A stretch of DNA of 64,000 nucleotides from Thermodesulfobacteriota bacterium. GTDB lineage: Bacteria; Desulfobacterota; QYQD01. Location: the NCBI GenBank assembly GCA_040755415.1, contig JBFMAZ010000022.1:64650-128649 (forward strand), read 5' to 3'. The first letter of the stretch is position 1, and each line of letters starts with the position of its first letter. Below are positions 16,195 to 56,768 of the stretch, piece after piece. The notes under the pieces are model-generated. The model was not told the DNA's origin and did no database searches. It worked only from the letters and a program-made list of their open reading frames with translations. Made by a program: the position numbers and the translations under genes.

Positions 16195-16205
16195 GAGAAC
16201 ATGGC

Positions 16206-17207
16206 ATGAAGATACTTGGTGTCCGGTTCAAAAACCTGAACTCACTCACGGGCGAATGGCAGGTTGATTTCACCCACCCGGATTATTCGTCTGACGGTAT
16301 ATTTGCCATCACAGGCCCTACAGGCTCAGGAAAGACGACCATCCTAGACGCCATCTGCCTCGGGATTTACGGCCGGACGCCCCGCCTGGACAAGGTTACG
16401 AAAAGCAGCAACGAGATCATGTCGCGTCAAACGGGTGAATGCTTTGCCGAGGTGACATTCCAGACGCAGAAGGGCCGTTATCGTTGCCACTGGAGCCAGC
16501 ACCGCGCCCGGAAACAGCCTGAGGGTGAGCTTCAGCAGGCCAGGCATGAAATAGCCGATGCCGATTCCGGGGCCGTCCTGGAATCAAAAATAAACCAGGT
16601 AGGTGAATTTATCGAGAAGGCCACGGGCATGGACTACAAGCGCTTCACCCGTTCAATGCTGCTGGCCCAGGGGGGATTCGCGGCCTTTCTCCAGGCCCCT
16701 CCCGACGAGCGGGCGCCCATCCTGGAGCAGATCACCGGGACCGAAATCTATAGCCGGATATCCATGAAAGTTCATCAACGCCGTACGGAAGAACACAACA
16801 AGCTTGAGATATTGCAGGCCGAACTGAAAGAAATCCAGGTTTTAAACGAAGATGAAGAAAGGGAACTGCAATCCGGCCTGAAAGAAAAGCAAGGCCAGGA
16901 GACGGAACTTGCCGGAAAAGTGAGTGAAATGCGCAAGGCCCTGACCTGGATCGAGGGGATGGTTGCCCTGGAGAAAGAACTAGGCGAACTGGACAAGAAA
17001 CAGCAGGATTTCGAGAAGCGCCGGCAGGCGTTTGAGCCGGAATCAAAAAAGCTGGAAAAATCCGGCAAGGCCCTCAGTCTTGAAGGCGATTACAGCAGGG
17101 TAGATGCTTTGCGCGTACAGCACAGGACAATGAGACAAAGGAGCTTAATGGCGCAATCGCGATTCTGCCTGAAAAGGATAAGGCCTGTGCAGATGCGCAT
17201 ACCGTAA
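16206..17207 (+). CDS. sbcC: Nuclease SbcCD subunit C, N-terminal segment; the gene appears frameshifted (see pseudogene feature)
   Basis: The Rad50-like ATPase head carries Walker A GPTGSGKTT and the Q-loop region. The last 30-40 aa of this ORF look out of frame. Confidence 0.75.
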   Translation: MKILGVRFKNLNSLTGEWQVDFTHPDYSSDGIFAITGPTGSGKTTILDAICLGIYGRTPRLDKVTKSSNEIMSRQTGECFAEVTFQTQKGRYRCHWSQHRARKQPEGELQQARHEIADADSGAVLESKINQVGEFIEKATGMDYKRFTRSMLLAQGGFAAFLQAPPDERAPILEQITGTEIYSRISMKVHQRRTEEHNKLEILQAELKEIQVLNEDEERELQSGLKEKQGQETELAGKVSEMRKALTWIEGMVALEKELGELDKKQQDFEKRRQAFEPESKKLEKSGKALSLEGDYSRVDALRVQHRTMRQRSLMAQSRFCLKRIRPVQMRIP

Positions 17208-17404
17208 GGCAGGCCGCAGAGGCCCGGCTGAATGAGGCACGAACCAGGCAGAGGTCGGAAGGGGATGTCATCAAAAAGGTACGCAACCTTGATGCCAGGC
17301 TGAGTGAGCAGAAAAAACAGGTTGAAGAGAAAAACAAGGCAATCGGAGAAATCGAAAAACAGGGGGAAGGCTACAGAAGCCTTGTCAAAAGCGGTGAACA
17401 GGAG

Positions 17405-38750: not shown

Positions 38751-39335
38751 ATGTCAGACTGGTCAAAAGGGAGAGTAAGGCGTAACGAGCGGTTGAGACT
38801 CAACCTTCACGAGAGCGTGCTTATCTGGTTCACGGGCCTCCCGGGAGCGGGCAAGACGACCCTAGCCTATGCACTGGATAGGTACTTATATAACAAGGGC
38901 TTTCACACCTATGCCCTGGATGACGACAATGTCGGCTACGGACTGTGCGGCAATCTCGGACTCAGCCCGGAGGACCACAAGGAAAGCGCCCGGAGGGTGG
39001 CCGAGGTAGGCCGGCTCTTTGTGGATGCCGGGATCATAACCATCGCCGCCTTCACCGCTCCCTATCGCGAAGACCGGAAGTCTGCCCGCAAACTATTCCG
39101 GCCCGGTGAATTTGTCGAGATCTATGTAAAATGCCCTGTGGCGGAATGCGAAAAAAGGGACGGCAAGGGATATTATGAAAAGGCCCGCTCCGGTCGCATC
39201 AAAGGATTTGCTGGCGTGGATTCTATTTACGAGGAACCGGAGAATCCTGAACTGATCCTGGAAACAGATAAGTACGATGTAAAGACCTGCTTAGAAAAGA
39301 TACTGACCTATCTGAGGAAAGAATTGATAATATAA
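38751..39335 (+). CDS. cysC: Adenylyl-sulfate (APS) kinase
   Basis: 194 aa. The P-loop is GLPGAGKTT. The sequence LDDDNVGYGLCGNLGLSPEDHKESARRVAEVGRLFVDAGIITIAAFTAPYREDR aligns closely with E. coli CysC ([54 protein letters not shown]). Confidence 0.93.
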   Translation: MSDWSKGRVRRNERLRLNLHESVLIWFTGLPGAGKTTLAYALDRYLYNKGFHTYALDDDNVGYGLCGNLGLSPEDHKESARRVAEVGRLFVDAGIITIAAFTAPYREDRKSARKLFRPGEFVEIYVKCPVAECEKRDGKGYYEKARSGRIKGFAGVDSIYEEPENPELILETDKYDVKTCLEKILTYLRKELII

Positions 39336-39510
39336 AACCTAAAAGGGCAATTCACCACAGAGAACACAGAGAACTACTTGAAATTATTATGTTTGAACCT
39401 ATTAAAATCTTTCTTTGTGCACTCTGTGGTTTTAAAATCGTTCAATTCAGGTAAAAAACATTTCCAAGCGGGAAAGATATTGATTACGGCAACTTTTTTG
39501 GCCGCCAGGG

Positions 39511-39768
39511 TTAAGGCTTTTTTAGAATATCATGGCTGCCGACTTTTCTCATGATATAGATGTCGCCTTCAATCTGAAAGGTAAAACGGTAAGAGTGGCT
39601 TACCCCGCCTTCCCAGATGTTCCTCGGATCTTGCATCTTTTTAATGTTTAGGGAAGGATGTTGTGAATCAGATAACAAAAACTCCAACTGTTTGTCGATT
39701 GCTTTCTGCACTGGCGGGGGCAGCTTACGGTAATCCCGGATAAAGTTTTTGGTAAAAACCAGCCTCAT
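39511..39768 (-). CDS. Type II toxin-antitoxin system RelE/ParE-family toxin
   Basis: 85 aa. The sequence MRLVFTKNFIRDYRKLPPPVQKAIDKQLEFLLSD...YRFTFQIEGDIYIMRKVGSHDIL matches the RelE/ParE fold pattern. It overlaps the antitoxin gene by 4 bp. Confidence 0.75.
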   Translation of the reverse strand: MRLVFTKNFIRDYRKLPPPVQKAIDKQLEFLLSDSQHPSLNIKKMQDPRNIWEGGVSHSYRFTFQIEGDIYIMRKVGSHDILKKP

Positions 39769-40049
39769 ATTTTAGTCTTCTTGAGGGCCCGGACGGCAGC
39801 TTTAATATTATCAAAAGGACCGACCACATCACCCTTGGCTATGTCTTTGTCCGCCTGTGCCTCCCCTTCCTGCCACTCTTTGGTGTAAAAATACTCCTGG
39901 TCGGGATGAACCAGCTTGACCGGCTTCATAATTATGTCGCCATCCTTATTCTCTACTTCCACATAATCCCCAACAGCAAGATTGAGCTTTCTGCGTAGAC
40001 CCTGTGGAATAGTAATCTGATAGTGTCTTTTGACCTTAACCAGCGGCAT
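39765..40049 (-). CDS. AbrB/MazE/SpoVT-family antitoxin (swapped-hairpin DNA-binding domain)
   Basis: 94 aa. The N-terminus KVKRHYQITIPQGLRRKLNLAVGDYVEVE is an SpoVT-AbrB domain. The gene sits upstream of the RelE-like gene and overlaps it. Confidence 0.75.
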   Translation of the reverse strand: MPLVKVKRHYQITIPQGLRRKLNLAVGDYVEVENKDGDIIMKPVKLVHPDQEYFYTKEWQEGEAQADKDIAKGDVVGPFDNIKAAVRALKKTKI

Positions 40050-40134
40050 AAAAATACCTCTTCCGTTCTTTACTATGACTTTATAAATTTATTAATTTTG
40101 TAATTTCATAATATCAGAGAGATAACTTTTGTCA

Positions 40135-40430
40135 AGCGCTGAAATTTTCTTTCTTTACTTTTTCCCCTGTTTTCATCAATAATGCGGAGAAAGAAACGAT
40201 ATTAAGGCGGGATTGTCGCAGCATGGAGGGGCGCTATAGAATTTATTTCCTTCTGTCAAACATTTTGCAACGTAAGAATCAACGTCCCCATCGGGGGGCC
40301 TCAACAGGCCCTTATGCAGGCGTACAGCGGATTATCCTGACTTTTTTAACAATGCCTTGAAAAATTATCTCAGCGTGATCCAGGGATGATCCAGGAGCGT
40401 GATCCGGGGACGTTGATTCTTACGTTGCAT
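40135..40430. repeat. Repeat element R, ending in a perfect 24-bp inverted repeat with a 116-nt spacer
   Basis: The body aataatgcggagaaagaaacgatattaaggcgggattgtcgcagcatggaggggcgctatagaatttatttccttctgtcaaacattttgcaacgtaagaatcaacgtcccc recurs split at 49977-50062 and 50738-50845. The inverted-repeat arms are tgcaacgtaagaatcaacgtcccc (40266-40289) and ggggacgttgattcttacgttgca (40406-40429). The spacer holds three copies of gcgtgatcc. Confidence 0.85.
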
Positions 40431-40457
40431 AACTCCATTCCCGCCTTCTATCCAATC

Positions 40458-40476
40458 AGCCATGTAGGGTGGGCTG
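40458..40476. repeat. 19-mer direct repeat agccatgtagggtgggctg, copy 1 of 3
   Basis: Exact copies lie at 40458, 49872 and 51960. Each sits at a boundary between gene blocks. Confidence 0.85.
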
Positions 40477-40533: not shown

Positions 40534-41364
40534 TCAGTTTCCAACCGTTCCGTCCATCTTACGGTTATTACCTTCGGAACAGTTTCCGAACTTTGACCGG
40601 ATAGAACTGAGCGGAGTTATCTGGAGCACCCCATCGTCAGCCGCGACCTTGCAATTAACCCCATAAACGGCCCCTATCGTCTGCGAGGTTAATACAGCCT
40701 CTGGTTCTCCAAGGGCAAAGACGTCTCCATCTTTCAAGATGACCACCTTATCAGCGTATCTCGCGGCCAGATTAAGGTCATGCAAGGCGATAACTGTGGT
40801 AATCCGTCTCTGCACCGTTATTTCCCTTAGCAGGTCGAGAATCTCCAGTTCATGCCGAAGGTCCAGACCACTTAATGGTTCATCTAAAAGAAGAACCCTT
40901 GACTGTCGAACGAGAGCCTGCGCTATCGAAACCATTTGCTTCTGTCCACCACTCAGTTCATCGAGAAACCTTGAAGCTAACCTTTCTATCCCAAGCCCCT
41001 CTAACACCTCTAGAGCAGGGGCGAGGTCCTCCTTGCCGACTCTCCAGGACAAGGATTGGATTCTGCCCAAAAGGACGGCTTCAAACACGGTTAAAACAGC
41101 CCGGGACGATTTTTCTTGGGGGAGGTAACTGACCCACTGCGTTATCTCGTCTTTCTTGAACCCGCTTGTCTCTTTCCCATCTAGCCTAATGGCACCCCTA
41201 GGCTTTAGCATGCCAGCGACACACTTTAGCAGCGTTGACTTCCCCGATGCATTTGGGCCAATGATAACCGTGACCTCACCCGGTAATGCCTCAAGATGAA
41301 TATCGCGCAAGACCGGCCCCCCACCGTCATAGGCAAACAACAGCCTTTCAATTTGTAGCTTCAC
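40534..41364 (-). CDS. ABC transporter ATP-binding protein (iron-siderophore/cobalamin FecE/BtuD type)
   Basis: Walker A is GPNASGKSTLLK. The signature is LSGGQKQMVSIAQAL. Walker B is LLLDEPLSGLD. Its start overlaps the permease stop. Confidence 0.9.
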   Translation of the reverse strand: MKLQIERLLFAYDGGGPVLRDIHLEALPGEVTVIIGPNASGKSTLLKCVAGMLKPRGAIRLDGKETSGFKKDEITQWVSYLPQEKSSRAVLTVFEAVLLGRIQSLSWRVGKEDLAPALEVLEGLGIERLASRFLDELSGGQKQMVSIAQALVRQSRVLLLDEPLSGLDLRHELEILDLLREITVQRRITTVIALHDLNLAARYADKVVILKDGDVFALGEPEAVLTSQTIGAVYGVNCKVAADDGVLQITPLSSIRSKFGNCSEGNNRKMDGTVGN

Positions 41365-42404
41365 CAGTACCCGATCCTTCTTTTAAACATCAAAGAAACG
41401 AAAAAAGGTACGCCGATAAAGGAAGTGACGATTCCTATTGGTAAGATGGCGCCAGGAATGGCCAACTTACTCACCGCCGATGCCGCAGAAAGCAAAACGG
41501 CTCCCGCCAGAGCAGATGTCGGCAAGAAGAATCTCTGATCCTCGCCAACAAGCATTCGTGCTATATGGGGCCCGGCCAGCCCTATAAAACCTATGGTGCC
41601 AACAAAGCAGACGGCAGCCCCGGTAAGAATGGAGACCCAGATAAATACTTTGAGCCGGAGTCTTTCTACATTGATGCCCAGGCTCTTAGCCTTTTCATCT
41701 CCAAGCCTCAGAGCAGTGAGCTTCCAGGCATCTTTAGCCAGCACAGGCACGGTCACTATGAGAATCGTGGTGGAGATTGCCAATTTTAGCCAGGTAGTTC
41801 TGAAAAGATTCCCGAAAAGCCAGAAGACCACTGCCTGTAACTGCTGCTCCGAAGCGATATATTGCAACAAAGCTGTTGCGGACTGGAATAAAAAGAGTAT
41901 GGCAATTCCTGCCAGCACCATGGTCTCGGCGCTTAATTTCGCTTTCCTGGCGATAGCGTATATCAGGAGGCAGGTGAGCATAGCGAAGAAGAAGGCATTG
42001 ATTGGTACAATGAAGTGTTCTCCGTAAGGGATAATACCAACGCCAAGGACAAGAGCCAGGGCAGCGCCAAATCCAGCGGCCGCAGAGATACCGAGCGTAT
42101 AGGGGCTGGCCAGGGGATTGTCCAGTATCGTTTGCATCTCGGCACCGGCGATAGCAAGCGAAGCGCCGACCACTACCGCCATCAGGGCAATCGGCAGTCT
42201 GAGGTTCCAGACGATGACGGACGTGGCAGGCCAAACCGAATCCGGCGCCCAGATTGCCAAGAGGATTTCGGTAATTGACAGCCACGCCGGCCCTACCGCC
42301 ATATCTACGAAAAGCATCAGCACAACTGCGATCGCCAGCGAGACAACTATGGCATACTTGCGGCCGGTTATTTGCTGATATAGCTCTTCAGCCTGAGTAA
42401 CCAA
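41361..42404 (-). CDS. FecCD-family ABC permease (iron chelate/B12 uptake)
   Basis: 347 aa with about 9-10 transmembrane segments in the FecCD/BtuC pattern. It contains GASLAIAGAEMQTILDNPLASPYTLGISAAAGFGAAL. Confidence 0.88.
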   Translation of the reverse strand: MVTQAEELYQQITGRKYAIVVSLAIAVVLMLFVDMAVGPAWLSITEILLAIWAPDSVWPATSVIVWNLRLPIALMAVVVGASLAIAGAEMQTILDNPLASPYTLGISAAAGFGAALALVLGVGIIPYGEHFIVPINAFFFAMLTCLLIYAIARKAKLSAETMVLAGIAILFLFQSATALLQYIASEQQLQAVVFWLFGNLFRTTWLKLAISTTILIVTVPVLAKDAWKLTALRLGDEKAKSLGINVERLRLKVFIWVSILTGAAVCFVGTIGFIGLAGPHIARMLVGEDQRFFLPTSALAGAVLLSAASAVSKLAIPGAILPIGIVTSFIGVPFFVSLMFKRRIGYW

Positions 42405-42417
42405 TTTTCACCCGTTC

Positions 42418-43608
42418 CTAATCTTGGACGCCTATCATCCAGATACCGCTGTAACCCATAGGCTGAAACTTCTTATCAAATTCCCTGAGATCCGTCTCCG
42501 GATCTAAGTTCTTGAATTCATCGGGGTGTAACCACTTGGCAACAGTCTGTATTACGGCGAAGGTGTAAATATTGTTGTAGATAAGATAAGACGAATCGAA
42601 AATGCCATAGACTCTGCCATTTTTCACCGCATTGAGAGTGTTCCAGCCCGGCCTTTCTGTAACAGCCTTTAGGAAAAGCCGCATCGAACTTTCAGGGGTC
42701 TCATGGATGCCAGACTTCATGGAACTATGAGTCTCACACCAGGACCCGCCGAATGAAGATATTATTATGAAATCCGGGTTTATTTTTAGCAGATATTCAG
42801 GGGCTATCGCGCCCCGTTCTTTTATAATGTCTTCAGCGATGTTTATGCCCCCTGCCTTGGCCACTATGACGCCCCACCCAGCATAACCACAGGTCCAGCC
42901 ATATTGAGAAGACCTCTTCGAGATGCCTTCCAGGTAACCCTTGGGCTTGGGCTTTTTAATTTTTTGTAAGCGGCTAACTACCTCGTCAACCCGCTTTTGA
43001 TAAAAATCCGCAATTTCCTGCGCTCTCTTTTCTTTACCCAGTAAAGCGCCCAGCAATAATGTGCTTGGTATAGTGTTTTCAAATGGTTTTTTCCAGTAGT
43101 CTACGATAACTGTTGGAATTCCCGCCTGCTCCATTCTGGCTATGTCCTCTGCTATACCCTCATATTTATCTATCAGCATCCACAGAGGAAATATGACCAC
43201 GTCAGGCTTGAGCGAGATAACCTTTTCCACGCTAAAGGTACCCTTTGCATGGCTGCCCACATCCGGTATGGCCTCTACTATCCCAGGATTTTTTTGTTTG
43301 TACTCTTTGTAGATATTCTGATCACTCATAGGGGTTATCTTTCCCCACCCTGCTATTTTTTCCAGAAAGCCCTCACCCGCTACGGCAGCAAATGTGGGGA
43401 GATGTCTGTCGAAGCATAGGACCACCTTCTTAACTGGCACGTTCACCGACACCTGTCGCCCGGCCATATCCGTGACCGTAATCCGATTCGGCGACGGCAT
43501 CTTATCTTCTGTATCACAGCCTCCCACCAGCATTGCTATCAAGGCCGTGACCAGAACGATTGAGACCAATTTTACTTTTCCAGTTCGCATAATTATTGAT
43601 TCTGACAA
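42418..43608 (-). CDS. ABC transporter periplasmic substrate-binding lipoprotein (FecB/BtuF-like class III binding protein)
   Basis: The lipoprotein signal is LVTALIAMLVGGC. It is co-oriented with the permease and ATPase, and its length of about 396 aa fits the class. Confidence 0.75.
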   Translation of the reverse strand: MSESIIMRTGKVKLVSIVLVTALIAMLVGGCDTEDKMPSPNRITVTDMAGRQVSVNVPVKKVVLCFDRHLPTFAAVAGEGFLEKIAGWGKITPMSDQNIYKEYKQKNPGIVEAIPDVGSHAKGTFSVEKVISLKPDVVIFPLWMLIDKYEGIAEDIARMEQAGIPTVIVDYWKKPFENTIPSTLLLGALLGKEKRAQEIADFYQKRVDEVVSRLQKIKKPKPKGYLEGISKRSSQYGWTCGYAGWGVIVAKAGGINIAEDIIKERGAIAPEYLLKINPDFIIISSFGGSWCETHSSMKSGIHETPESSMRLFLKAVTERPGWNTLNAVKNGRVYGIFDSSYLIYNNIYTFAVIQTVAKWLHPDEFKNLDPETDLREFDKKFQPMGYSGIWMIGVQD

Positions 43609-43861
43609 AAATAATGTCTTATTTGTTTTGTCATGCCTGCGAAGGCAGGCATCCAGAACCAGCGATTTTACTGGATTCCCGCTGGCCCCGTACTTGATAC
43701 GGGGTTACCCCGTGGGTTCCTGCTTTCGCAGGAATGACACACGGGGCGGGAATGACAGAAAAAACTCTAATGCGGACATTGTTTATGCAGCTTTCAATAG
43801 TCCCTAAGAAGGGGAAAAATGAGCATATGCCCCCCGAATTCCCTTCACCAATAAGGAACGG

Positions 43862-44911
43862 CTATAACTTCATCAATCCTCCTATTTCTTCTAAATGGGT
43901 CAAGACCCACCTGTGAGGCCAGGGGCAACCTTTGCATTGGTCAGTTGCTTTCTTGTTACGATTGATGAAGGCCCGATAGTCTTCAATAGATTTGAGCTCA
44001 AAGATGTGAGTCGACGAAGCCACTCCAGTGGTACAACTCTCGATCAGCCCATCGTTTAATACGGCCAAGTAATAAATGCCACCTTCGCAGCTATGGGGAG
44101 ATGAACCGCCCGTGTACATCTGATAAACGCCTGCGGGAGTGCACACGCCCATCTTTGGTTTTAACTGGGTGAAGAAACAATCTTCGTTACCGAGTAAATA
44201 TCCTTCTGATTTCATTGCCCACAATTTCTCGAACGTTCGCTCAACTTCAAATAAATCTTCTTCACCAAGCGCAAGCTCTTCTGTATAGCTGTGGTTCACC
44301 ACCCCCCTAACCATCAGCGAAAATCGGATCGGTATGCCAAGTTCAGAAAATCGACGAAGCATCTCCGGTAGTATGGTTAAGTTATATTTTGTAACCACAG
44401 CAGCTACACTGGTTTTAAATCTGAATTTCGAATTAACGATGTATTGCAGGATACGCTCTAACTCCGCTGTTAAACTCTTGCCGAATTTGGGATGTCTATC
44501 GTTATCCAAAGTATCAATAGAAAAGCCGAGGCTATCCAATCCCGCCTCATCCAAGGCGTGCAGAAATTTTTCATTAAGACATCGCCCATTCGTCAAAATC
44601 GAAACGATCGTATCACGCGCGGAAATGTAATCAACCACATCTAACACGTAGGGCGAGAGTAAAGGCTCACCGCCGACCAGACTAATCATTCGATTCCCCA
44701 GCACATAAGCAATATCCGCCACGCGTTTCCATTCTTCAAGCCCCATGTCATTGTTGGTAAGCGATTTTTTTTGAGCACAGTAAGTGCAGCTCAGGTTACA
44801 CGCCCCCGTAAGGAATAGACATGTTTGATAAGGATGTATATCCCCAGCGATTGCCCGCTCTAGGCTTGATAGATAGGCTTTTTGCTTTGCCATGCGATTG
44901 TGCTTGTACAT
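43862..44911 (-). CDS. Radical SAM protein with a SPASM/twitch-like C-terminal cysteine cluster
   Basis: The CxxxCxxC motif is GACNLSCTYCAQKK. The C-terminal Cys-rich region is CTPAG...CEGG...CTTG...CKGCPW. Confidence 0.8.
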   Translation of the reverse strand: MYKHNRMAKQKAYLSSLERAIAGDIHPYQTCLFLTGACNLSCTYCAQKKSLTNNDMGLEEWKRVADIAYVLGNRMISLVGGEPLLSPYVLDVVDYISARDTIVSILTNGRCLNEKFLHALDEAGLDSLGFSIDTLDNDRHPKFGKSLTAELERILQYIVNSKFRFKTSVAAVVTKYNLTILPEMLRRFSELGIPIRFSLMVRGVVNHSYTEELALGEEDLFEVERTFEKLWAMKSEGYLLGNEDCFFTQLKPKMGVCTPAGVYQMYTGGSSPHSCEGGIYYLAVLNDGLIESCTTGVASSTHIFELKSIEDYRAFINRNKKATDQCKGCPWPHRWVLTHLEEIGGLMKL

Positions 44912-45019
44912 ATGAATATTGTCCCTTTTTGCAATGTTTTTTTAATTCTCTGGTTCATATGAGATTTTTGATTCGATTAATGGAGTCATGTGTTTCGCTT
45001 CCCACTTTTCTCTTTATAA

Positions 45020-47278
45020 TTAATAAGTTAAAGTTAACTCACAAAACCATGACCTGCCGGGCGCCTTGTCCGAATAGAAGTAATCCTCGTCAAAGATATT
45101 GTCCACAGAAAAGGAGAGTGTCGCAAATTTCGTAATATTGTAAGAGACTTTTGCATCTGCAACAAAATATGGGTCGTATGAACCATAGACACCATCTACT
45201 TCGTCACTGTTGTCATCATTTTTATAAATTTTACTAACGTATCTACCAACAATGCTGGCAGAAAAGGGGCCTTTGGATAGGTCAGCACCGATGTTGAACA
45301 TCTTTTCGGGAACCATTGTCAGGTTTTTTCCTACAATTTCCGGCTTTGCTGAATTTTCCGTTACCTCTGAATCGGTATAAGTGAAGTTTGCAAAAAGTCT
45401 GAGCCAATTTCCAATGCCCTGCTCAACTTCAAGTTCTATACCTTTACATTTAGCCTTACCTACATTTGAATATTGGTAAAGGGTAGGTGTAGTCAGTGCC
45501 ATATAGATGAGGTCCTTCATATAATTCTCAAAATATGTGGCCGTTATCTTCGCCCCTTTCCATAATGCCTGTTCAGCGCCTATATCCCATGACGTCATGG
45601 TCTCTGGCTCCAAATCGGGATTTCCTTCATTAGTGATTCCCGTCGGTCCAGTCCATTTCATATAAAGGTCAACAATTGTCGGGGCGTTGAAAGCCTTTCC
45701 TGCGGATGCCCTAATGGTTGTCTTTTCAAATGGTTTATATACAACGGCAGCCTTTGGGCTAAAGGATGATTTATCTCTCGATTCATAACTGATATCAGAG
45801 ACACCTAACTGAAAGATATACCCATCGTATGTTTCCCACCAATCCTGTCTGAAACCAATATATGCGGTCAGGTTATCAAGAATCATTATCTCGTCCTGGA
45901 CAAATAAGGAATATGCCCTGTCCTTACCACTTGATTTCTGGAAAAGGGTGGTCTTTGTGTCCTCATCTTGCCAGTCAGTACGTAAAGAGTTTTCGTTTGA
46001 TGCTCTATTACGTGTGAAGGAGCCTCCAAAAGTAAGGAGGTGTCTCTCAAATAGAGGGACTGTAAATACTAATTCAGAACTAAATAAGTTGTCTGATGGG
46101 TGCCACCATTCTGCTCCAGGTCCACCAGAACGTGTTGAGCTGCTGGTTGGAATTCCTGATCCGTAAGTCGCATTAACATAACTAAGGGAGAGTTTTGTTT
46201 TGACTGTAGATATCTCTGTTTCGTAGCTTATATTATACGCATCCTGTTCTCGACGAAAGTCATGCCAGGTGAGAAAGGAATTTTCACCTACAGTTCCATA
46301 TGACCAGACAGGATTACCTGCCGCATCTTCCAGGTAAGTATGGGGATCATCCCAGCGCTCCCCCCAACGGTTTTTATGATACACAAATTTGATTTTTGAA
46401 GTCTTAGAAAAGTCATATCCTGCCTTGAGGGTTATATTGTCATCCCAATATACATTGTCCCCTGCGTCGCCAATCAAATACCTGGTGTTACCCATCGTGT
46501 CTGTTGTGGAAGACCAGCCTGAAATTCCTGCTGTTGGCTGGGCGCTCTGGACATTATAGACTGTGGGAAAACCATTTGTATCCTTTCTCCCATAGCTCAG
46601 AAAAATACTCAGTTTATCCTTAAATTTATCGCCATAGGATAAATAGAATCTCCTTAAATCATCCGATGCCTCACCTCTCTCCCAGCTTGAACCATAGCCA
46701 CTTTTTATAATAAATTCCCTTTTTCCAGGCATCTTTGTTATAATGTTTACAACACCTCCCATTGCGTGATTACCGTAAAGACTTGAAAAGGGCCCCTTGG
46801 CAACCTCAATCCTATCTATTTCCTCTGGGGCTAATCCCGAAATTCCAGGTAAGTTTCCAACCATGGGGTCATTAAGGGTTATGTTATCCATTATAACCAA
46901 TGTCCTTCCTCGACCAAAGGGGACTCCCCTTAAAGTAATCTGGGGATTTCTATCTTGGACGCCTTTGGCGCGAATGAGAAACACTCCCGGAAGCGTGTTC
47001 AGTCCCTGATCAACAGTCTGGATATTTCTTTTTTCTATATCTTTATCTGTAACAACAGAGATACTGCCAGGAGCTGTCGCTGCCTCCTTTTCCGTCCTTG
47101 TTGCAGTTACAATGATATCTTCCAATACAACAAGTTTCTCCTTTTTAGCGGATTCTACCTGGTTATCCTTTGCCTCTGCAGTTTTTTCTTCCTTAGGCCC
47201 TTCTGTGTCTTGGGCAAGACTAATTTGAGTTAAACCAAAGAAGACCGTAAATACCGAAATAATAAATAATCTAACCAT
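45020..47278 (-). CDS. TonB-dependent outer-membrane receptor
   Basis: The plug and beta-barrel are present. The signal peptide MVRLFIISVFTVFFGLTQISLAQD is at the internal Met, so that start was chosen; the ORF itself is open to 47389. The TonB-box-like motif is LVVLEDIIVTATR. The C-terminal aromatic motif is ...CELTLTY. Confidence 0.85.
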   Translation of the reverse strand: MVRLFIISVFTVFFGLTQISLAQDTEGPKEEKTAEAKDNQVESAKKEKLVVLEDIIVTATRTEKEAATAPGSISVVTDKDIEKRNIQTVDQGLNTLPGVFLIRAKGVQDRNPQITLRGVPFGRGRTLVIMDNITLNDPMVGNLPGISGLAPEEIDRIEVAKGPFSSLYGNHAMGGVVNIITKMPGKREFIIKSGYGSSWERGEASDDLRRFYLSYGDKFKDKLSIFLSYGRKDTNGFPTVYNVQSAQPTAGISGWSSTTDTMGNTRYLIGDAGDNVYWDDNITLKAGYDFSKTSKIKFVYHKNRWGERWDDPHTYLEDAAGNPVWSYGTVGENSFLTWHDFRREQDAYNISYETEISTVKTKLSLSYVNATYGSGIPTSSSTRSGGPGAEWWHPSDNLFSSELVFTVPLFERHLLTFGGSFTRNRASNENSLRTDWQDEDTKTTLFQKSSGKDRAYSLFVQDEIMILDNLTAYIGFRQDWWETYDGYIFQLGVSDISYESRDKSSFSPKAAVVYKPFEKTTIRASAGKAFNAPTIVDLYMKWTGPTGITNEGNPDLEPETMTSWDIGAEQALWKGAKITATYFENYMKDLIYMALTTPTLYQYSNVGKAKCKGIELEVEQGIGNWLRLFANFTYTDSEVTENSAKPEIVGKNLTMVPEKMFNIGADLSKGPFSASIVGRYVSKIYKNDDNSDEVDGVYGSYDPYFVADAKVSYNITKFATLSFSVDNIFDEDYFYSDKAPGRSWFCELTLTY

Positions 47279-47360
47279 TCCCTTATCCACCTTAACCTCC
47301 CCTTCTGCAATTGATATCCGCTCGACCATGCGTTTTCCTTGTCCGTCAGCATAGGCTTTC

Positions 47361-48554
47361 CTAACTCTGTGCGCATCTATCAGAGACATGCCTTCTCCCC
47401 ATGGTCATCTGTTCTATAAATCCCTCCACTCGGACCCTGAGCTGCCCCACGTCGGATTTGGAAAAGTCTGTAACTACATGGAGAAAGGGAAGCCCATGCT
47501 TCCCTTTGACCAGCTCGGAAACTCTATATGACTCGATATTAAACGTATGGCAGAACTGCCAGGTCAGATCGATTACACCCTGGATCCGGTACTCTGATAT
47601 CAGTCGGTCTATTTGTTCAAAGCGGGAGGTATTAGGCGTCATGCATGAACAGGTGACCCGAAGATACCTTTCGGCCAGGGCTTGAATGGGATCTTCTGCT
47701 TCCTCATCCGCAAGATCGTCGAAGCGTGTTACCCCGCCGCATCCCTCCTGGCACACGACTACCCCGCCGCATTCCTCAACCAATTTCAGCACCTTATCAC
47801 ACCCGAGACTGTTTCCCAGACCGGTCCACAATATCCGTGGCCGGGCGGGGGAGCAGGCGAATTCCTTGTCCCTTATCCGTCGCTTCAGTTCAGCGAGCAG
47901 TCTAGTGAGATTTGAAACATACTCCTCGCGGTCAACGGTGTAACCGAATTTGGTGCTTGAACCCACGAGGTCCCTGCCCATAATCGGTACGGGGTGGTGT
48001 TTTCGGCAGGCGTGGATCTCTTTGAGAAGCCGGCGTTCCTTGTTGATCTGTTTGATGGCCTTCCGCAGATCCTCGTTTGAGATCATGACGCCCAATTGCC
48101 CTTCGAGAAAGACTTTCAATTTCCGCATTTCGGCTATCCAGTGTATGAGAGCATCCCTTTCGTCCGGCTTTTGCGGGAGGTCCATAACGTGTATCGGTTT
48201 TTCGCGCGCCAGGAGCTCGTACATCTTTTTCCGGCCGTCGCAGGTCGTTTCCCCCACTATGCAATCCGCAAGCGGAAATATGGGGCAGGTATTTGAGACG
48301 GACCGGCCATATGTGGCCTTGACCATCGGGCACTGATCTGCAGGGAGCACCTTTTCCGCGGCAGCAATGGGCTCTCCCGTTGTGCCGCAGAGACCTACCG
48401 GTATGGCACCCGCGGCCAGCGCCATCTCAATTGGGAAATAGGAGCACATGAACCCTACCACCTTTTTGCCTTCATCTTTCGCCATCTCCAGTTTCAGGGC
48501 GAGTTCGGTCCTTACCTCACCAATAGTCTCTTTCGGCTTCAAATCCATGACCAT
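47361..48554 (-). CDS. 2-hydroxyacyl-CoA dehydratase family protein (HgdB/BcrB/BadE-like D-component)
   Basis: 397 aa. The N-terminus KKVVGFMCSYFPIEMALAAGAIPVGLCG and conserved Cys residues are typical of the HGD-D family. Confidence 0.75.
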   Translation of the reverse strand: MVMDLKPKETIGEVRTELALKLEMAKDEGKKVVGFMCSYFPIEMALAAGAIPVGLCGTTGEPIAAAEKVLPADQCPMVKATYGRSVSNTCPIFPLADCIVGETTCDGRKKMYELLAREKPIHVMDLPQKPDERDALIHWIAEMRKLKVFLEGQLGVMISNEDLRKAIKQINKERRLLKEIHACRKHHPVPIMGRDLVGSSTKFGYTVDREEYVSNLTRLLAELKRRIRDKEFACSPARPRILWTGLGNSLGCDKVLKLVEECGGVVVCQEGCGGVTRFDDLADEEAEDPIQALAERYLRVTCSCMTPNTSRFEQIDRLISEYRIQGVIDLTWQFCHTFNIESYRVSELVKGKHGLPFLHVVTDFSKSDVGQLRVRVEGFIEQMTMGRRHVSDRCAQS

Positions 48555-49348
48555 CCTCTCCCCTCGTATTCTTCTTTCGCCACGATGGCCGCACCAAGAG
48601 CGCCCATAAGCTGCGGATCTATATCCATCTGCGCAAAACGAATACCGAGAGCGTCCTCCAGCGCCTTGCGAAGTCCCACGTTCTTGGCCACGCCACCTGC
48701 AAAAACCACCTCCGGTTGTATGCCCACGCGTGCAGCCATATTGCTTACGCGCCTGGCTATTGCGAGATGAAGGCCTGCGGTGATATTTTGCTTGGTCTCT
48801 CCCTGTGCGAGAAGCGAAATGACCTCGGACTCGGCAAAAACAGTGCAGGTGCTGTTTATCAGGCTTGGCCTTCCCGACTGGAGAAAAAACTCTCCGAGCT
48901 CATCCAATTCGAGTTCGAGCGCTCTGGCCATGACTTCTAAAAAGCGTCCGGTCCCGGCCGCACATTTATCGTTCATTACAAAATCATAGACACGGCCAGA
49001 CTCGTCCAGTCTAATTACCTTGCTGTCCTGCCCTCCGATGTCAATTACCGTTCTGGTTTCGGAATGTAGATGATAAGCCCCTTTTCCGTGACACGTAATC
49101 TCAGTGACAGTCCGGTGCGCAAACGGAAGGGCAATCCGGCCATATCCCGTGCCGACGATAAATGCTATATCTTCGGGCCGGCAAGCTGCCAGCAGGAGCG
49201 CCTGTTCAAACACTTTCTTTCCTGCCTGTTGCGGATCGGCGCCCGTGGCAATAGTGCTTTTCGCAACTATACGGCCGCGATCAACCAGCACTGCTTTGGC
49301 AGCAAGCGACCCCACATCTATGCCTGCGAAAATAGACAGATGATGCAT
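48539..49348 (-). CDS. Acyl-CoA dehydratase activase (CoA-substrate-specific enzyme activase, BadF/BadG/BcrA/BcrD ATPase)
   Basis: 269 aa. The N-terminus is GIDVGSLAAKAVLVD (phosphate-1). The ASKHA fold is present. The two Cys that bridge the 4Fe-4S cluster are conserved (…NDKCAAGTGRF…). Confidence 0.85.
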   Translation of the reverse strand: MHHLSIFAGIDVGSLAAKAVLVDRGRIVAKSTIATGADPQQAGKKVFEQALLLAACRPEDIAFIVGTGYGRIALPFAHRTVTEITCHGKGAYHLHSETRTVIDIGGQDSKVIRLDESGRVYDFVMNDKCAAGTGRFLEVMARALELELDELGEFFLQSGRPSLINSTCTVFAESEVISLLAQGETKQNITAGLHLAIARRVSNMAARVGIQPEVVFAGGVAKNVGLRKALEDALGIRFAQMDIDPQLMGALGAAIVAKEEYEGRGWSWI

Positions 49349-49871
49349 CGCACTCCTCCCAGTGCAACTGCCGCTGAGTTCCTTAAAATTCTGTTGAACT
49401 TCGTGTGCTTCCTGATGAAATCATTTGATTGCGGCTATATTGCGTTGTCTCACGAGTGAAACCCGTTTCGAATATCACACGAAAGCGGTTTCCCGGAGCC
49501 TCAAATTCACAGGCGGATATGAATCATATTGATTTAAAAAGGGAATTTAGGTAGGATAGGGGGCATGCGAAAAAGGGAATTCTCCCTCTTCGCATGCCAG
49601 GGTGGGCTACCAGTCGTTAACTTGGCCGGTTTCGCTGGTAGCCGCCCGCCTAAACTTCCCTTAGATTCTGTCTGGCTTTGCCAACGTGAATCGCTTATTA
49701 TCCCAATACAACCTATGTGTCAAATCGGAAATATCGATAGAGCTTTATGCTTAGATCGGTTATCCTTTGACTCGGGCTATTCCACGTTGCGTCCTTGACC
49801 TAACCTTCATAACTTCGCAATAGAATCAGACTTGACGGGGTGCACTGGCGCAGACTGAAGCCTGCGGCTAC

Positions 49872-49890
49872 AGCCATGTAGGGTGGGCTG
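49872..49890. repeat. 19-mer direct repeat agccatgtagggtgggctg, copy 2 of 3
   Basis: An exact match. It is immediately followed by the duplicated cysC 3' end. Confidence 0.85.
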
Positions 49891-49976
49891 AACTGATCCT
49901 GGAGACAGATAAGTACAATGTAAAGACCTGCCTGGGAAAAATCCTGGCCTACCTGAAGGAAGAATTGATAATATGA
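49891..49976 (+). other. Duplicated, diverged cysC 3' end (last 28 codons plus stop), not attached to a gene
   Basis: aactgatcctggagacagataagtacaatgtaaagacctgcctgggaaaaatcctggcctacctgaaggaagaattgataatatga aligns with 39250-39335 at about 85 percent identity. It encodes LILETDKYNVKTCLGKILAYLKEELII*. Confidence 0.85.
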
Positions 49977-50062
49977 CCGCCTTTCCCTTTACTTTTCTTA
50001 CCATTGTCATTAATAATGCGGAGAAAGAAACGATAGCAAGGCGGGATTATTGCAGTATGACA
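49977..50062. repeat. Repeat element R, left part (split copy)
   Basis: ctttacttttcttaccattgtcattaataatgcggagaaagaaacgatagcaaggcgggattattgcagtatga matches 40150-40245 and ends at gcagtatga. Confidence 0.85.
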
Positions 50063-50118
50063 GTCTCCGGATAAAAACCAAATAGGTTATTTTTCTGTAC
50101 AATACATGTTAAGCGTAG

Positions 50119-50674
<556 letters not shown>

Positions 50675-50737
50675 CTTCATGTTGGACGTCAGATTATGCA
50701 CTATAACTCGAAGTATTCGTTCAGCAGTTCCCCATAT

Positions 50738-50845
50738 CGTTAAAAGGTTCGTTTACTGCCGCAGCATGGAGGGATGCTATAGAATTCATTTCCTCCTGTC
50801 AAACATTTTGCAACGTAAGAAACAACGTCCCTATCGGTCGTGCTC
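50738..50845. repeat. Repeat element R, right part (split copy) with one arm of the 24-bp inverted repeat
   Basis: tactgccgcagcatggagggatgctatagaattcatttcctcctgtcaaacattttgcaacgtaagaaacaacgtccc matches 40225-40289. It begins at gcagcatgga. Confidence 0.85.
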
Positions 50846-51946: not shown

Positions 51947-51959
51947 AGATAAAAATCTT

Positions 51960-51978
51960 AGCCATGTAGGGTGGGCTG
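51960..51978. repeat. 19-mer direct repeat agccatgtagggtgggctg, copy 3 of 3
   Basis: An exact match. Confidence 0.85.
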
Positions 51979-52652: not shown

Positions 52653-55600
52653 TCAGGCATAAACCGGCCTGAGCCGCACGGCGCAGACCTTATACTCGGG
52701 TATCTTGGAAACCGGGTCAACCCCGGGATTGGTAAGGAGGTTGGCGGCGGCCTCCCGGAAGTGGAAAGGCAGAAACACCGTACCCCGCTGGCACATCTCT
52801 GTAAGTGCCACCCGCACCGTTATGTTACCCCGCCTTGAGATAATGCGCACCGGAGAATGATCGTCAATATTCAGGGCAAAGGCGTCAATGGGGTTCATTT
52901 CTACCATAACCTCCGGGTACATCTTGTTTAAGCCCTCAGCGCGGCGGCTCATGGTGCCGCTATTGTAGTGATAGAGCACCCGTCCGGTAGAAAGCAAAAA
53001 TGGATAGTCATCGTCCGGCATCTCGCTGGCCGGGATCACCTCCAGGGCATGGAATAGACCTTTCCCGCGGGTAAAACCATTGCAATGCAAGACCGGCGTA
53101 CCGGGATGGTCCAACGCCGGGCAAGGCCATTGAATCCCTGTCTCTTCCAGGCGATCGTAATAAATGCCCCCATAGGTGGGCGTCAAGCTGGCTATTTCCT
53201 CCATGATCTCTTCCGGCGACTGATAGGACATCTCGTATCCCATCTTTGCCGACAGGTCACAGATAATTCTCCAATCCGGCCTGCTTTGCCCCGGAGGTGA
53301 AAGGGCCTGTCTGACCCTCTGTACCCGCCTCTCCGTATTGGTAAAAGTGCCCTCTTTCTCTGCGTAACTTGCCGCCGGCAAGACCACATCGGCCAGCCTG
53401 GCCGTCCGAGTAAGAAAGATATCCTGCACCACGAGGAATTCAAGATTCTCCAAGGCCGATCGGACATGATTAAGATCCGGGTCGCTTATCATGGGGTTCT
53501 CACCCATAATGTAAAGGCCCTTTATCTTCCCCTCGCCGGCCTGTTTTATCATCTCCGTAGCCGTAAGGCCGGGTTCCCCGGGCAGCCGGGCATCCCAGGC
53601 CTCCTCAAATTTCCGCCTGACGGCTGCATCGGCAATACTTTGATATCCGGGGAGCACGTTAGGCAAGGCCCCCATATCACAAGCGCCCTGGACGTTATTC
53701 TGCCCGCGTAGGGGATTCACCCCGCCCCCTTCGATCCCTACATTACCGCACAGCATGGCCAGGTTGGCAATAGCCTTTACATTGTCCGTGCCGCTCCGGT
53801 GCTGGGTGATACCCATACAATAGACGATGGCCGCCCGCCCCGCCTGTGCATAGAGACGGGCTGCTTTTCTGAGGTCCTCCGCCGGTATCCCGGTGATCAT
53901 CTGTACCAGCTCAGGGGTGTATTTTTCCACTGTTTGGGCAAAGGCCTCGAAGTTTTCTGTCCGCTCCCGAACATAATCCTTATCCCATAGCCCCTCTTTA
54001 ACAATCACGTGGGCCAATCCATTTAACCAGGCTATATCCGTGCCCGGCCGGGGCCGAAGATAGATATCTGCATACTGCGTCATCTTGATTACCCGGGGGT
54101 CGGCCACGATCAGCTTCTTCCGCAGCCGGGTGACCGCGCTTATGATATGCAGACTGATAACCGGGTGGTTTTCTGTAGTGTTGCTGCCTGTAAGCAGGAT
54201 AACGTCGGCCTTTTCCAAGTCCTGGATGGAATTGGTCATGGCCCCGCTGCCAAATGCGGCAGCCAGACCGGCTACCGTGGAGGAGTGTCAGAGCCGGGCG
54301 CAGTGATCTATATTATTTGTCCCAAGGACGGCCCGGGCCAGCTTTTGCATCAGATAATTTTCTTCATTGGTACATTTAGCCGAGCAGAGTACACCCAGGC
54401 CCTCCGCTCCATACGTCTCTTTGAGTTCCTTAAGTCTATCGGCAATAAGCTCCAGTGCCTCATCCCAAGTGCAGGCCTGAAGCTCGCCATCCTTGCGTAT
54501 CATGGGCCTAGTAAGCCGGTCCGGGTGTTTAATAAAATCATGCCCGAAGCGCCCTTTTACGCAGAGGTGTCCTTGATTGGGGATAAAACCTGGATCAGAA
54601 GTTACTTCTACCAGCTTCTCTCCCCGAATATTGAGAATCAGGTTACAACCAGTACCGCAATAAGGGCAAACGGTTTTAACCTGCCTCAGTTCACCGGCCA
54701 GGGATTGCTCGGTTTCCTTCTTGACCAGGGCCCCGGTCGGACAATTATCGGCACACAGGCCGCAGAACACGCAGTTGTCATTAATGGTCAGCGAAATCGC
54801 CCGCAGTTGGCCGACAGTTTCCAGTTCGCCTTCTTCCAGGTTGATAGCCTCATATTCACAGACATTCTTGCAACGCCGGCAGAGTACACATTTATTCAGG
54901 TCAATGGTTATAAAAGGATGACGGCGATCCACCTTGTAGTTGAGGCGGGTGCCAATCCCGTAATGAGAAAGATCAACATTATATTGAGGGGCCTCACGCC
55001 GAATAATGCACTTGTCCACGGCATGACACCCGCACGCGAGGCACCGCTCCGCCTCTTTCACCGCCATCTCTTCAACATAACCCGTTTCTAACTCGCCGAA
55101 GTCGCCGGCCAGGGTCTTGGGGTGGCGTATCGGCATTCTCTGCCTGGGACGTGGAGGTACTTCTTCGAAGTTCCGCAGATCGACGTCTTCAAAAAACTCG
55201 CCTTTAGTGATATTAAACGGGGTACGCGGCAACTCTATTTCCCGTTCGGTTAGATACATATGGATAGCATCGGCCGCCTTTCGCCCTTGTGCTATGGCCT
55301 CGACAACGGTGCGCGGTCCGCTGACCGCATCGCCTCCGGCAAATATCCCCTCTAAATTGGTGACAAGAGTACGGGGGGCCGCCTCGATAGTATTCCAGCG
55401 GGTAAGCCCTAGCCCTTCGGTCAGACCCTCGGCATGACATTTTCCGATCTCTACCGACTGGCCGATAGCTGCAATAACACTATCTACCTGTATCACACTT
55501 TCCGATCCAGGGACAGGCACGGGACGCCTCCGGCCGCTCTGATCCGGTTCCCCCAGCTTCATCCTCTGCACTTCGAGATTAAGGAAACCGTCGCCCGGTG

Positions 55601-56768
55601 TAATCCTGGTTGGTGCCGCCATCAGGAAAAATTTAACCCCTTCGTCTTCAGCCTCTTTGATCTCGCGGTGGCTGGCCGGCATCTCCATCCGTGACCGGCG
55701 GTAAACTATAGTCACCTCAGTCGCCCCGAGCCTGAGAGAGGTACGGGCGGCATCAATGGCGGTATTGCCCCCACCGATTACGGCCACCCTCGGCCCTACA
55801 TGAACCTCGTCACCTTCGGCAAACTTGCGGAGAAAATCAATGCCAGAAAAGACTCCGGGGAGATCTTCGCCTTCGATGCCCATGGGACGGCTCTTCCACG
55901 CCCCTATACCGATGAATATGGACTCGAACCCTTCCTGTTTCAGGCTCTCCAGAGAAAAATCCCTACCCCATTTCCGGCCGCACCTCACCTCAACGCCCAG
56001 GTCAAGGATAAATTGTATCTCGGCATCCAATATTTTCTTAGGCAAGCGGTACTCCGGGATGCCATAACGAAGCATTCCGCCCAATGCAGGCATGGCCTCG
56101 AATATGGTTAGCCGGTGCCCCTTACGGGCCAGATAGTATGCAGCGCTGAGTCCGGCCGGCCCACCTCCGATTACGGCTATCCGGTGATCGGTAGAGGGTT
56201 GCTGAGGTACAGGAATGGACTCCTTGTGTGCAAGTCCATAGTCGGCTACAAACCTCTTTAGATGATTTATCGCCACACTGCCATCTACGAGGTTGCGGCG
56301 GCAACGCGATTCACAAAATCGGGGGCAGACCCGCCCTACCGAAAGGGGCAAGGGATTTTTCTCCTTAATGAGCTCTAAGGCCTCAAGGTATCTCCCAGCC
56401 GCAATATGGGCAATATACCCCTGGATATCTATATTGGCGGGGCAGGCCAGAGAACATGGCGCTGTGCAGTCGCCATAATGTTCAGAAAACAGGAGTTCCA
56501 GGATGACCCGGCGGGCGGTCCTCACCTTTTCGGCGTTGGTGGCTACCACCATGCCTTCAGAGACCGGCGTAGCACAGGAAGCGACGAGTCTGTCTTTACC
56601 TTCTACCTCCACGACACACAGACGGCAGGAGGCCGGGGGTTTTTTGAATTGGGGTAAGTAGCAAAGGGTAGGGATGTGGATGGCAGCCCTCCGGGCTGCC
56701 TCCAGGATGGTGGTTCCTTTCTCGACGGTTACTTTTCGGCCATCAATGGTTAAGGTTACTTCAGCCAT
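52653..56768 (-). CDS. fdhA: Selenocysteine-containing formate dehydrogenase catalytic subunit, fused as 2Fe-2S + GltD-like FAD/NAD(P) + 2x[4Fe-4S] + molybdopterin domain (about 1355 aa, TGA = Sec at 54288-54290)
   Basis: The two ORF-track pieces (54288..56768 and 52653..54239) are in the same frame and are separated only by TGA. The junction reads [30 protein letters not shown]. This matches the FdhF Sec motif NVDCCARV-U-HGPSVAALH. The N-terminal part has 2Fe-2S Cys, a GltD-like domain ([19 protein letters not shown] ... [12 protein letters not shown]), ferredoxin-type CxxCxxCxxxCP motifs twice, and the MopB N-terminal CPYCGTGC. Confidence 0.85.
54240..54290 (-). promoter_or_regulatory. In-frame UGA (Sec) codon plus downstream SECIS-like hairpin
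   Basis: The mRNA reads UGA cac ucc ucc acg gua gcc ggu cug GCUGCC gcauuu GGCAGC ggg. There is a perfect 6-bp stem with a 6-nt loop starting about 24 nt after UGA, the usual spacing for bacterial SECIS. Confidence 0.6.

Follow-up and report, generated by a model that had tools for sequence, protein, structure and literature searches.

Double-cubane cluster proteins (DCCPs) were defined structurally in 2018, and their physiological function is stated as unknown in a review of the group (PMC7317905). The C. hydrogenoformans DCCP with its reductase DCCP-R (PDB 6ENO, 7YYL) and E. coli YjiM with YjiL belong to the same NCBIfam family (NF040772), carry seven cysteines and have an adjoining archerase-type activase; neither pair has a known physiological substrate or a link to a transporter. 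A further described setting is the selenocysteine-assisted organometallic (SAO) locus of Haft and Gwadz, in which an ATP-binding cassette (ABC) importer, DCCPs and an activase occur together in strict anaerobes with a selenium connection. Here, we analyze a DCCP/activase pair that, unlike those of C. hydrogenoformans or E. coli, lies inside a TonB/ABC import operon together with a radical SAM gene and an RNA leader. The operon is found in a Thermodesulfobacteriota bacterium (assembly GCA_040755415.1), within a stretch of 64,000 nucleotides of contig JBFMAZ010000022.1 (positions 64,650 to 128,649) that we call the window.

The four-part transport architecture of this operon is that of the Fec, Fep, Hmu and Btu systems and of Yersinia YiuABC–YiuR. 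The enzymes encoded with known chelate importers are esterases, flavin reductases, heme oxygenases or ChuW-type proteins, and none of these importers is known to be paired with a DCCP/activase and a radical SAM enzyme of twitch-like type. The ChuW/HutW system of anaerobic heme degradation likewise places a radical SAM enzyme inside a TonB/ABC uptake locus, but ChuW belongs to the HemN-like class, whereas the window enzyme groups with the MoaA/twitch/SPASM branch. The SAO locus has nine defined genes (the MerB-like SaoL, the selenoproteins SaoB and SaoP, and others), and none of the seven window proteins matches a Sao model; the window importer also differs in being of the FecBCD type, with a TonB receptor and no selenoprotein. 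An earlier reading of the sequence alone had called the combination not a described pathway, and full-text literature searches gave no description of it. Neither this combination, nor the isolated family of the radical SAM enzyme, nor the RNA leader is described in the searchable literature; the parts themselves come from known families.

On balance, we lean toward the view that the seven genes form one conserved uptake-and-processing unit for a scarce carrier-bound compound. The receptor, the chelate-class lipoprotein and the FecCD/ATPase importer would bring the compound into the cytoplasm, where the rare radical SAM enzyme, with its one predicted auxiliary cluster, would act on the organic carrier. 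The YjiM-class DCCP, charged by the ATP-hydrolysing activase, would pass very-low-potential electrons to the cargo, and the three-stem RNA leader would control expression.

The gene unit and its conservation

The open reading frame (ORF) list and family scans confirm a unit of seven ORFs in a row on the minus strand (40534–49348), where the sequence-only reading had placed it. In the order of transcription, the genes encode an activase (48539–49348; BcrAD_BadFG, PF01869 at 224 bits, and TIGR00241 at 275 bits against a cutoff of 125), an HGD-D protein that we identify as a DCCP (47361–48554), a TonB-dependent receptor with plug and barrel domains (ORF 45020–47389, likely 45020–47278, as the signal peptide suggests M38 at 47278 as the true start), a radical SAM protein (43862–44911; PF04055 at 77 bits, the sole match in the Pfam scan), a Peripla_BP_2 substrate-binding lipoprotein (ORF 42418–43608 with a probable ATG at 43590; PF01497 at 94 bits, lipobox LVGGC), a FecCD-family type II ABC importer permease (41361–42404; PF01032 at 283 bits) and an ABC importer ATPase (40534–41364; PF00005 at 106 bits). 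The permease, the Peripla_BP_2 protein and the ATPase together constitute a type II (FecCD/BtuCD) importer, and the receptor matches both PF07715 (77 bits) and PF00593 (203 bits), as expected of a TonB-dependent receptor with its plug and 22-strand barrel.

Two overlaps reported earlier are real, with 16 nt shared between the activase and DCCP genes and 4 nt between the permease and ATPase genes. The accompanying description of the genes as tightly packed fits these overlaps and the 13-nt gap between the binding-protein and permease genes, but not the gaps of ~82 nt between DCCP and receptor, 108 nt between receptor and radical SAM, and ~271 nt between radical SAM and binding protein. The last of these (43591–43861, minus strand) has four GC-rich hairpins together with a promoter-like site (43620–43592) immediately ahead of the binding-protein gene, and could hold an internal promoter or an mRNA-processing or mRNA-stabilising element.

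For the comparison of neighborhoods, we took loci (L-numbers below) from contigs with radical SAM homologues, scanning one genome per species and the JGI metagenomes. The full seven-gene order recurs in L001/L024, L004, L011, L013, L014, L016 and L026, and partial versions are present on the cut contigs L009 and L025 and on one JGI contig. In L008, the order is rearranged to ExbBD, receptor, radical SAM, DCCP, binding protein and permease, keeping the same families together. The unit is thereby found in at least 10 lineages at protein identities of 55–94%, its hosts being Desulfobacterales, Desulfopila, Desulfobulbia, Desulfatiglans and unclassified Thermodesulfobacteriota metagenome-assembled genomes; the window itself has a 100% match to a protein from a Thermodesulfobacteriota genome of this kind. 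As the order recurs across at least 10 Desulfobacterota lineages and the association survives the rearrangement in L008, the adjacency is not due to chance, and the proposal that the genes form a functional unit has passed the check on neighborhood conservation. We regard the link between transport and the chemistry of the DCCP and the radical SAM enzyme as supported.

The seven genes differ in their conservation. While the permease is 80–93% identical across related loci, comparison with the closest relative, L016, shows 90–94% identity for the outer four genes but 70–74% for the receptor, the radical SAM protein and the binding protein. The same three middle genes have a GC content of 0.42–0.47, against 0.51–0.54 for the outer four. 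The lower identity and lower GC content point to a swappable substrate-specificity module that includes the radical SAM gene, and this suggests that the middle module has been exchanged by recombination. In L004/L012 (6303–10932), the radical SAM and binding-protein genes are tandemly duplicated as a pair, the two radical SAM copies being 73% and 64% identical to the window protein. An ORF of 163–165 aa upstream of the unit in L001 and L004 was considered as a further member and rejected, as it is absent from the window. No flanking gene is common to the window and any other locus.

The DCCP and the radical SAM enzyme

DCCPs are homodimers with an [8Fe–9S] cluster, and we judged family membership by the NF040772 cutoff, the seven-cysteine motif and an adjoining ATP-dependent ASKHA reductase. 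The HGD-D protein scores 473.1 bits against the NF040772 equivalog (cutoff 350), compared with 96.6 bits for BzdN and 68 bits for HadC, and its best PDB relatives are the C. hydrogenoformans structures 7YYL and 6ENO (284 bits; BzdN 86 and HadC 54 bits). All seven of Cys37, Cys56, Cys75, Cys105, Cys272, Cys302 and Cys335 align with the cluster cysteines of 6ENO, and their spacings (X18, X18, X29, X166, X29 and X32) are 1–3 residues off the published motif CX19CX18-19CX29CX166-170CX32-34CX32C (Haft and Gwadz; PMC7317905). The alignment begins at residue 51 of 6ENO and the protein therefore lacks the N-terminal extension of the C. hydrogenoformans enzyme. That extension narrows the channel, and the extension-less YjiM-like class is expected to take larger substrates (PMC7317905). 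On its family score, cysteines and length, we class the HGD-D protein as a short DCCP that resembles YjiM also in being without the channel-narrowing extension (PMC7317905).

The activase is of the ATP-dependent ASKHA “archerase” type by family match and, with its gene overlapping that of the DCCP, is the predicted electron-injecting partner of that protein. The HGD-D protein had previously been viewed as a lone HgdB-like subunit missing its alpha partner. The single HGD-D gene stands, but the partner of a DCCP is an activase and not an alpha subunit, such that the absence of the latter is expected and no anomaly; the comparison then made with YjiL/YjiM was apt, as YjiM belongs to the same family. 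A 2-hydroxyacyl-CoA dehydratase (HgdAB/HadBC) was rejected on the single PF06050 gene of the operon and the HadC score far from its cutoff of 700 bits. A class I benzoyl-CoA reductase was rejected likewise, with BzdN at 96.6 bits against 453.8 and just a single gene each for an HGD-D protein and an activase.

The radical SAM protein carries the superfamily motif CX3CX2C as C38-X3-C42-X2-C45, invariant in 18 sequences. Equally invariant is an auxiliary motif, C275-X12-G288-X4-C293 ... C326-X2-C329, which contains the only four conserved cysteines of the C-terminal part. The protein had been described as SPASM-type, a class that we recognize by PF13186 with ~7 cysteines for two auxiliary clusters; PF13186 gave no match even at E ≤ 10 and the description gives way to a single four-cysteine auxiliary motif. 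An AlphaFold (AF2) model built from 18 homologues has a mean pLDDT of 78.6, with low confidence exactly at the auxiliary-cysteine loops, and its nearest folds are MoaA, SkfB, viperin-like, SuiB, PqqE and BlsE, at TM scores of 0.5–0.6. No peptide-recognition domain is seen in the model. Judged by motif and model, the protein is best described as a rare twitch-like small-molecule enzyme with a predicted auxiliary cluster. The twitch enzymes BtrN, BlsE, DesII and MoaA are similar in size and core fold, have one auxiliary motif and no peptide-recognition domain, yet identities to them are only 15–22% and TM scores 0.5–0.6, the window family standing isolated. The comparison extends to the cysteine pattern of BtrN. 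HemN/ChuW-type families were absent among the best 25 of 69 NCBIfam matches, among the PDB sequence matches and among the fold matches listed. The possibility of a RiPP (ribosomally synthesized and post-translationally modified peptide) maturase was dismissed, there being no peptide-recognition domain, nor any conserved small ORF in the stretch that separates the radical SAM gene from the binding-protein gene (51–271 bp among loci).

The family is small. Homologues comprise ~20 clusters above 50% identity, after which identities fall to 35%, and an exhaustive search of 1.84 billion representative proteins returned only 7 at E ≤ 1e-30; among these representatives, the family forms a single isolated cluster at 50% identity. 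A homologue of 42% identity (P0203) lies on a 1.6-kb contig. The nearest outgroup, of 38% identity, comes from a Bacteroidota metagenome-assembled genome (L017, 1423–11263), where the neighboring genes encode a second radical SAM/SPASM protein, an Asp/Glu racemase, a carbamoyltransferase, an asparagine synthase and an amidohydrolase. That locus looks like a biosynthetic-type cluster and not a transport cluster.

Leader RNA, sister loci and the nature of the cargo

Upstream of the activase gene, 331 nt are 89% identical to L016 and include a predicted structured 5′ leader RNA (49521–49667, minus strand), in which a closing stem and two hairpins meet at a three-way junction. The same fold is predicted for L016, L001 and L026. 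RNAalifold on the four sequences gave 39 pairs, with compensatory changes in 11, and the minimum free energy z-score is −6.9. None of 500 shuffles reached the observed percentage paired or the covariation score, and 94% of the cells are paired, compared with 35–56% when the partners are slid. In a set of seven sequences, 93% of the cells are paired, against 34–52% in slid controls. Compensatory changes are seen in 10–11 pairs. The sense strand fits better than the antisense (93% vs. 88%), through 22 G–U pairs, and the conserved bases are concentrated in the first hairpin loop and the junctions. The leader ends 31–172 nt ahead of the start codon. Rfam gave no match to it or elsewhere in the window, and neither a terminator nor a clear anti-Shine–Dalgarno pairing was evident after it as an expression platform. 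With a conserved, covarying structure in the 5′ untranslated region, as generally expected of riboswitches, we consider the leader a candidate riboswitch or cis-regulator. Just upstream of the leader lies a putative sigma-70-type promoter (49697–49723, minus strand), with TTGACA at 49723–49718 and GATAAT at 49702–49697, read from the sequence and conserved in L016; the promoter scan missed this site because of its 15-nt spacer.

A covariance model of the leader (R1), trained on the four sequences, found copies outside the training set upstream of activase genes in L033 (134.5 bits), L032 (104 bits) and, weakly, L034, all of them loci of a different type. Homologues of the DCCP greatly outnumber those of the radical SAM enzyme, and DCCPs 79–81% identical to that of the window, as close as those of most loci of its own type, occur in these sister loci (L029–L034). 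There the order is activase, DCCP, ABC ATPase, BPD_transp_1 permease, SsuA-like binding protein and TonB receptor, followed by a DxDxDG-repeat protein, ExbB, ExbD and TonB; L030 (9150–15901) and L033 (7548–14475) are examples, with activase, DCCP, an SsuABC/Sao-like ABC importer and a CU-motif receptor after the leader position. The sister loci have no radical SAM gene. Their binding-protein and receptor genes each contain one in-frame TGA, at “VVA*DPT” and “PGC*” (PGC-TGA in the L030 receptor), indicating that both proteins carry selenocysteine. The L030 receptor scores 881 bits against NF049946 (“TonB-dependent receptor, CU motif-type”), a model on which the window receptor, with no in-frame TGA, reaches 96 bits where more than 700 are needed. 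The sister permease and binding protein are SaoP-like and SaoX-like, both below the cutoffs, which brings these loci closer to SAO than the window operon is.

The two locus types also share their downstream genes in part, as L001 and L026, which are of the window type, are likewise followed by the DxDxDG-repeat protein and ExbB–ExbD–TonB. The repeat protein is an EF-hand-like secreted protein of 557–588 aa (L001 12558–14231, L026 14321–16039, L032 16048–17796, L033 14628–16394), without a Pfam family and with only a weak match to the Lsa25.6 adhesin model. Some loci (L026, L030 and L032) hold several DCCP/activase pairs. The presence of the DCCP and activase in both locus types makes them the constant module and the importer the exchanged one, which argues that the DCCP acts on something that both routes deliver and that it does not exist to serve the radical SAM enzyme. 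We infer that the imported compound is the substrate of both the DCCP and the radical SAM enzyme, and that the two types of importer bring in one element in differing chemical forms.

The surroundings of these loci point to selenium. SelD is found at 340–368 bits in L030 and L031 and as a frameshifted copy in L001, YedF at 208–220 bits in L030, L001, L026 and L032, and YedE at 485 bits in L031 and L032; the window-type locus of L001 has YedF and SelD immediately upstream, and that of L026 has YedF upstream. Haft and Gwadz counted 955 of 970 DCCPs in SelD-positive assemblies and connected these proteins with the SAO importer. The host of the window itself makes selenoproteins, as the gene for an FDH-like (formate dehydrogenase-like) molybdopterin oxidoreductase (52653–56768, minus strand) is split into two ORFs by one in-frame TGA (~54288–54290, motif HCARL*HSS) that is a selenocysteine codon. 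In L030, a tRNA-Sec gene and a SelD–AhpD fusion gene follow directly after the CU-motif receptor gene (15995–17750), and SelD, YedF, Mop and an SclA-like desulfurase lie on the upstream side. From this context, we favor selenium-linked chemistry as the leading candidate for the cargo, with iron second and a corrinoid unlikely; the cargo would then be selenium-linked and the reductase would feed selenide to SelD. We would put forward only tentatively the fuller scheme, in which the leader is a new riboswitch class sensing selenium-related or other soft-element species, the operon is one of a pair of interchangeable TonB-dependent routes to that element, and its release from an organic carrier by the radical SAM enzyme is followed by ATP-driven reduction by the DCCP to the form used by SelD.

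Several observations weigh against a selenium-linked uptake unit. The best named matches of the receptor, the binding protein and the ATPase are iron-siderophore, heme and B12 families, all below their cutoffs, and the comparison of binding pockets gives no hint of the ligand. The leader is absent from L004, L011, L013 and L014 and from the sister loci L029–L031. No SelD, YedE or YedF is encoded within the 64-kb window. The ~271-nt gap with its promoter-like site means that the operon may comprise two transcription units. Finally, the selenium link could reflect a cofactor need of the DCCP or the selenoproteins of the sister loci and not the cargo; in view of the cofactor alternative, we treat selenium as a leading candidate and not as a result.

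The most serious alternative is iron acquisition, first proposed in the sequence-only reading: a ferric siderophore or heme would be imported, the DCCP and activase would provide electrons of sufficiently negative potential to strip iron out of a highly stable chelate, and cleavage of the ligand would fall to the radical SAM enzyme. The transport proteins give this idea its substance. The receptor scores best against hemin (219 bits), siderophore (186 bits) and B12 (169 bits) models in NCBIfam and against CirA in the PDB (115 bits); the ATPase is nearest to heme ABC ATPases (203 bits); and the binding protein leans to ferrichrome/ferrioxamine models and, in the PDB, to V. parvula FepB (4MO9, 219 bits) and YiuA (6B2X, 175 bits), with further matches to 9HRJ, 9HRP and 9IF3. 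The binding protein belongs to the chelate-type cluster A-2, in the YiuA/4MO9 subgroup (PMC5683015 for YiuA). However, every one of the family matches is under its cutoff, and of the basic triad of YiuA only the Arg64 position is kept, as Arg62 (one of three; PMC5683015). A conserved Cys or His pair is not found among 11 binding-protein orthologues. Scans of 15 upstream regions for Fur, Zur, NikR and ModE consensus sites, a weak test based on consensus strings, did no better than shuffled controls, and the window operon differs from Fec/Btu-type systems in that neither a Fur box nor a B12 riboswitch was found. The radical SAM enzyme shows no relationship to HemN/ChuW-type proteins among the matches listed, and control appears to lie with the leader, which is common also to loci with a selenocysteine-containing importer of the SsuABC (sulfonate) family, where sister DCCPs occur with a selenoprotein importer beside SelD, YedE and YedF. 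Iron or heme uptake is a possible function, but the context speaks against it and we find it doubtful.

A role in energy metabolism, with the DCCP reducing an imported organo-element oxidant as an electron sink, as modeled for SAO, seems to us less probable still. Haft and Gwadz, who associate DCCPs with an ABC importer, favor metabolism over resistance, and the several DCCP/activase pairs of L026, L030 and L032 would fit such a role. TonB-dependent and type II ABC uptake followed by DCCP reduction costs ATP and proton-motive force, which would suit scarce nutrients and not bulk acceptors, and no respiratory or Rnf-type genes travel with the unit in the loci compared.

We give little credence to a role in cofactor maturation, in which the radical SAM enzyme and the activase would mature or repair the DCCP cluster, possibly a selenium-containing one, and the transporter would merely supply the element. 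Radical SAM enzymes of the same broad family do build complex clusters, NifB being an example. DCCP and SelD also co-occur (Haft and Gwadz). Against maturation, DCCPs of ~80% identity are found in loci without a radical SAM gene, and the radical SAM gene is flanked by those for the receptor and the binding protein and has been duplicated along with the latter.

Salvage of a corrinoid or another tetrapyrrole, also raised in the sequence-only reading, is highly unlikely: although the permease is nearest to BtuC (218 bits) and the radical SAM protein has weak matches to AhbD/NirJ models (42–60 bits), all these scores are far under the cutoffs, and no cobalamin riboswitch was matched by Rfam at the gathering threshold in the window or at E ≤ 10 in 49300–49900. 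A chance adjacency of unrelated genes in a mobile insert, an idea that the bracketing repeats and the differing genomic contexts might invite, is already contradicted by the synteny, with the same families side by side in at least 10 lineages at 55–94% identity and one locus rearranged, and its probability is negligible.

Flanking sequences and wider significance

The unit is bracketed by two exact copies of a direct repeat, which had been noted as a 19-mer and is really a 20-mer (CAGCCATGTAGGGTGGGCTG, plus strand). The copy at 40457–40476 marks the 3′ boundary of the unit and that at 49871–49890 the 5′ boundary, where it abuts a fragment of the cysC 3′ end; a third copy, matching at 19 of 20 positions, follows the DUF7309 gene at 51959–51978. 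No copies of the 20-mer are expected by chance. Likeness to the operon tail of L001 ends within 3 nt of the left 20-mer and likeness to the upstream region of L016 ends 94 nt before the right one, and between its boundaries the window copy consists of the promoter, the leader and the seven genes only. A 10-mer core of the repeat (AGGGTGGGCT) is present also inside the RNA leader, at 49599–49608.

Outside the repeats, host sequence is duplicated. The left flank (39247–40294, plus strand) contains the intact cysC end (A, 39247–39333) and segments B and C (40153–40294), and the right flank (49888–50837, plus strand) contains their counterparts A′ (49888–49974), B′ (49987–50059) and C′ (50757–50837). 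A′ is an 87-nt segment that is 87% identical to the 3′ end of cysC, the intact gene lying 10.6 kb leftward. The two intergenic segments are 82% and 91% identical to their copies, and in total ~250 bp of host sequence is doubled. A toxin–antitoxin-like pair breaks up the duplicated sequence in each flank, the two pairs and their points of insertion being different: on the left a ParE-like/MazE-like pair (39511–40049, minus strand) and on the right a putative pair of small overlapping ORFs (50149–50674). The wider surroundings are housekeeping genes, with MreB, DivIVA and cysC on one side and FDH and the acetyl-CoA synthase/carbon monoxide dehydrogenase (ACS/CODH) cluster on the other.

In their layout, the flanks carry the signature of insertion via a short core site or homology on either side. 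A scan of ORFs between 34 and 54 kb revealed no recombinase domain, viral contigs do not contain the 20-mer, and searches of PLSDB plasmids and viral sequences with the radical SAM protein and the 20-mer gave nothing relevant. An integron cassette was rejected, as there is no attC-like consensus beside the 20-mers. The earlier term “cargo” for the operon is plausible given the bracketing by the 20-mer and the duplicated host sequence, although a recombinase gene to go with it was not found.

The conserved operon places a YjiM-class DCCP right behind nutrient import, and the function of DCCPs thereby becomes testable via the ligand of the binding protein. The occurrence of the same DCCP/activase/leader module on two unrelated importers, one of them built of selenoproteins, suggests a modular, ATP-driven reductive release of scarce elements in sulfidic habitats. 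A leader without an Rfam counterpart would be a new class of regulatory RNA, and its ligand could reveal the cargo. If the selenium scheme were true, it would provide the first physiological reaction for double-cubane proteins and a dedicated high-affinity pathway for selenium uptake.

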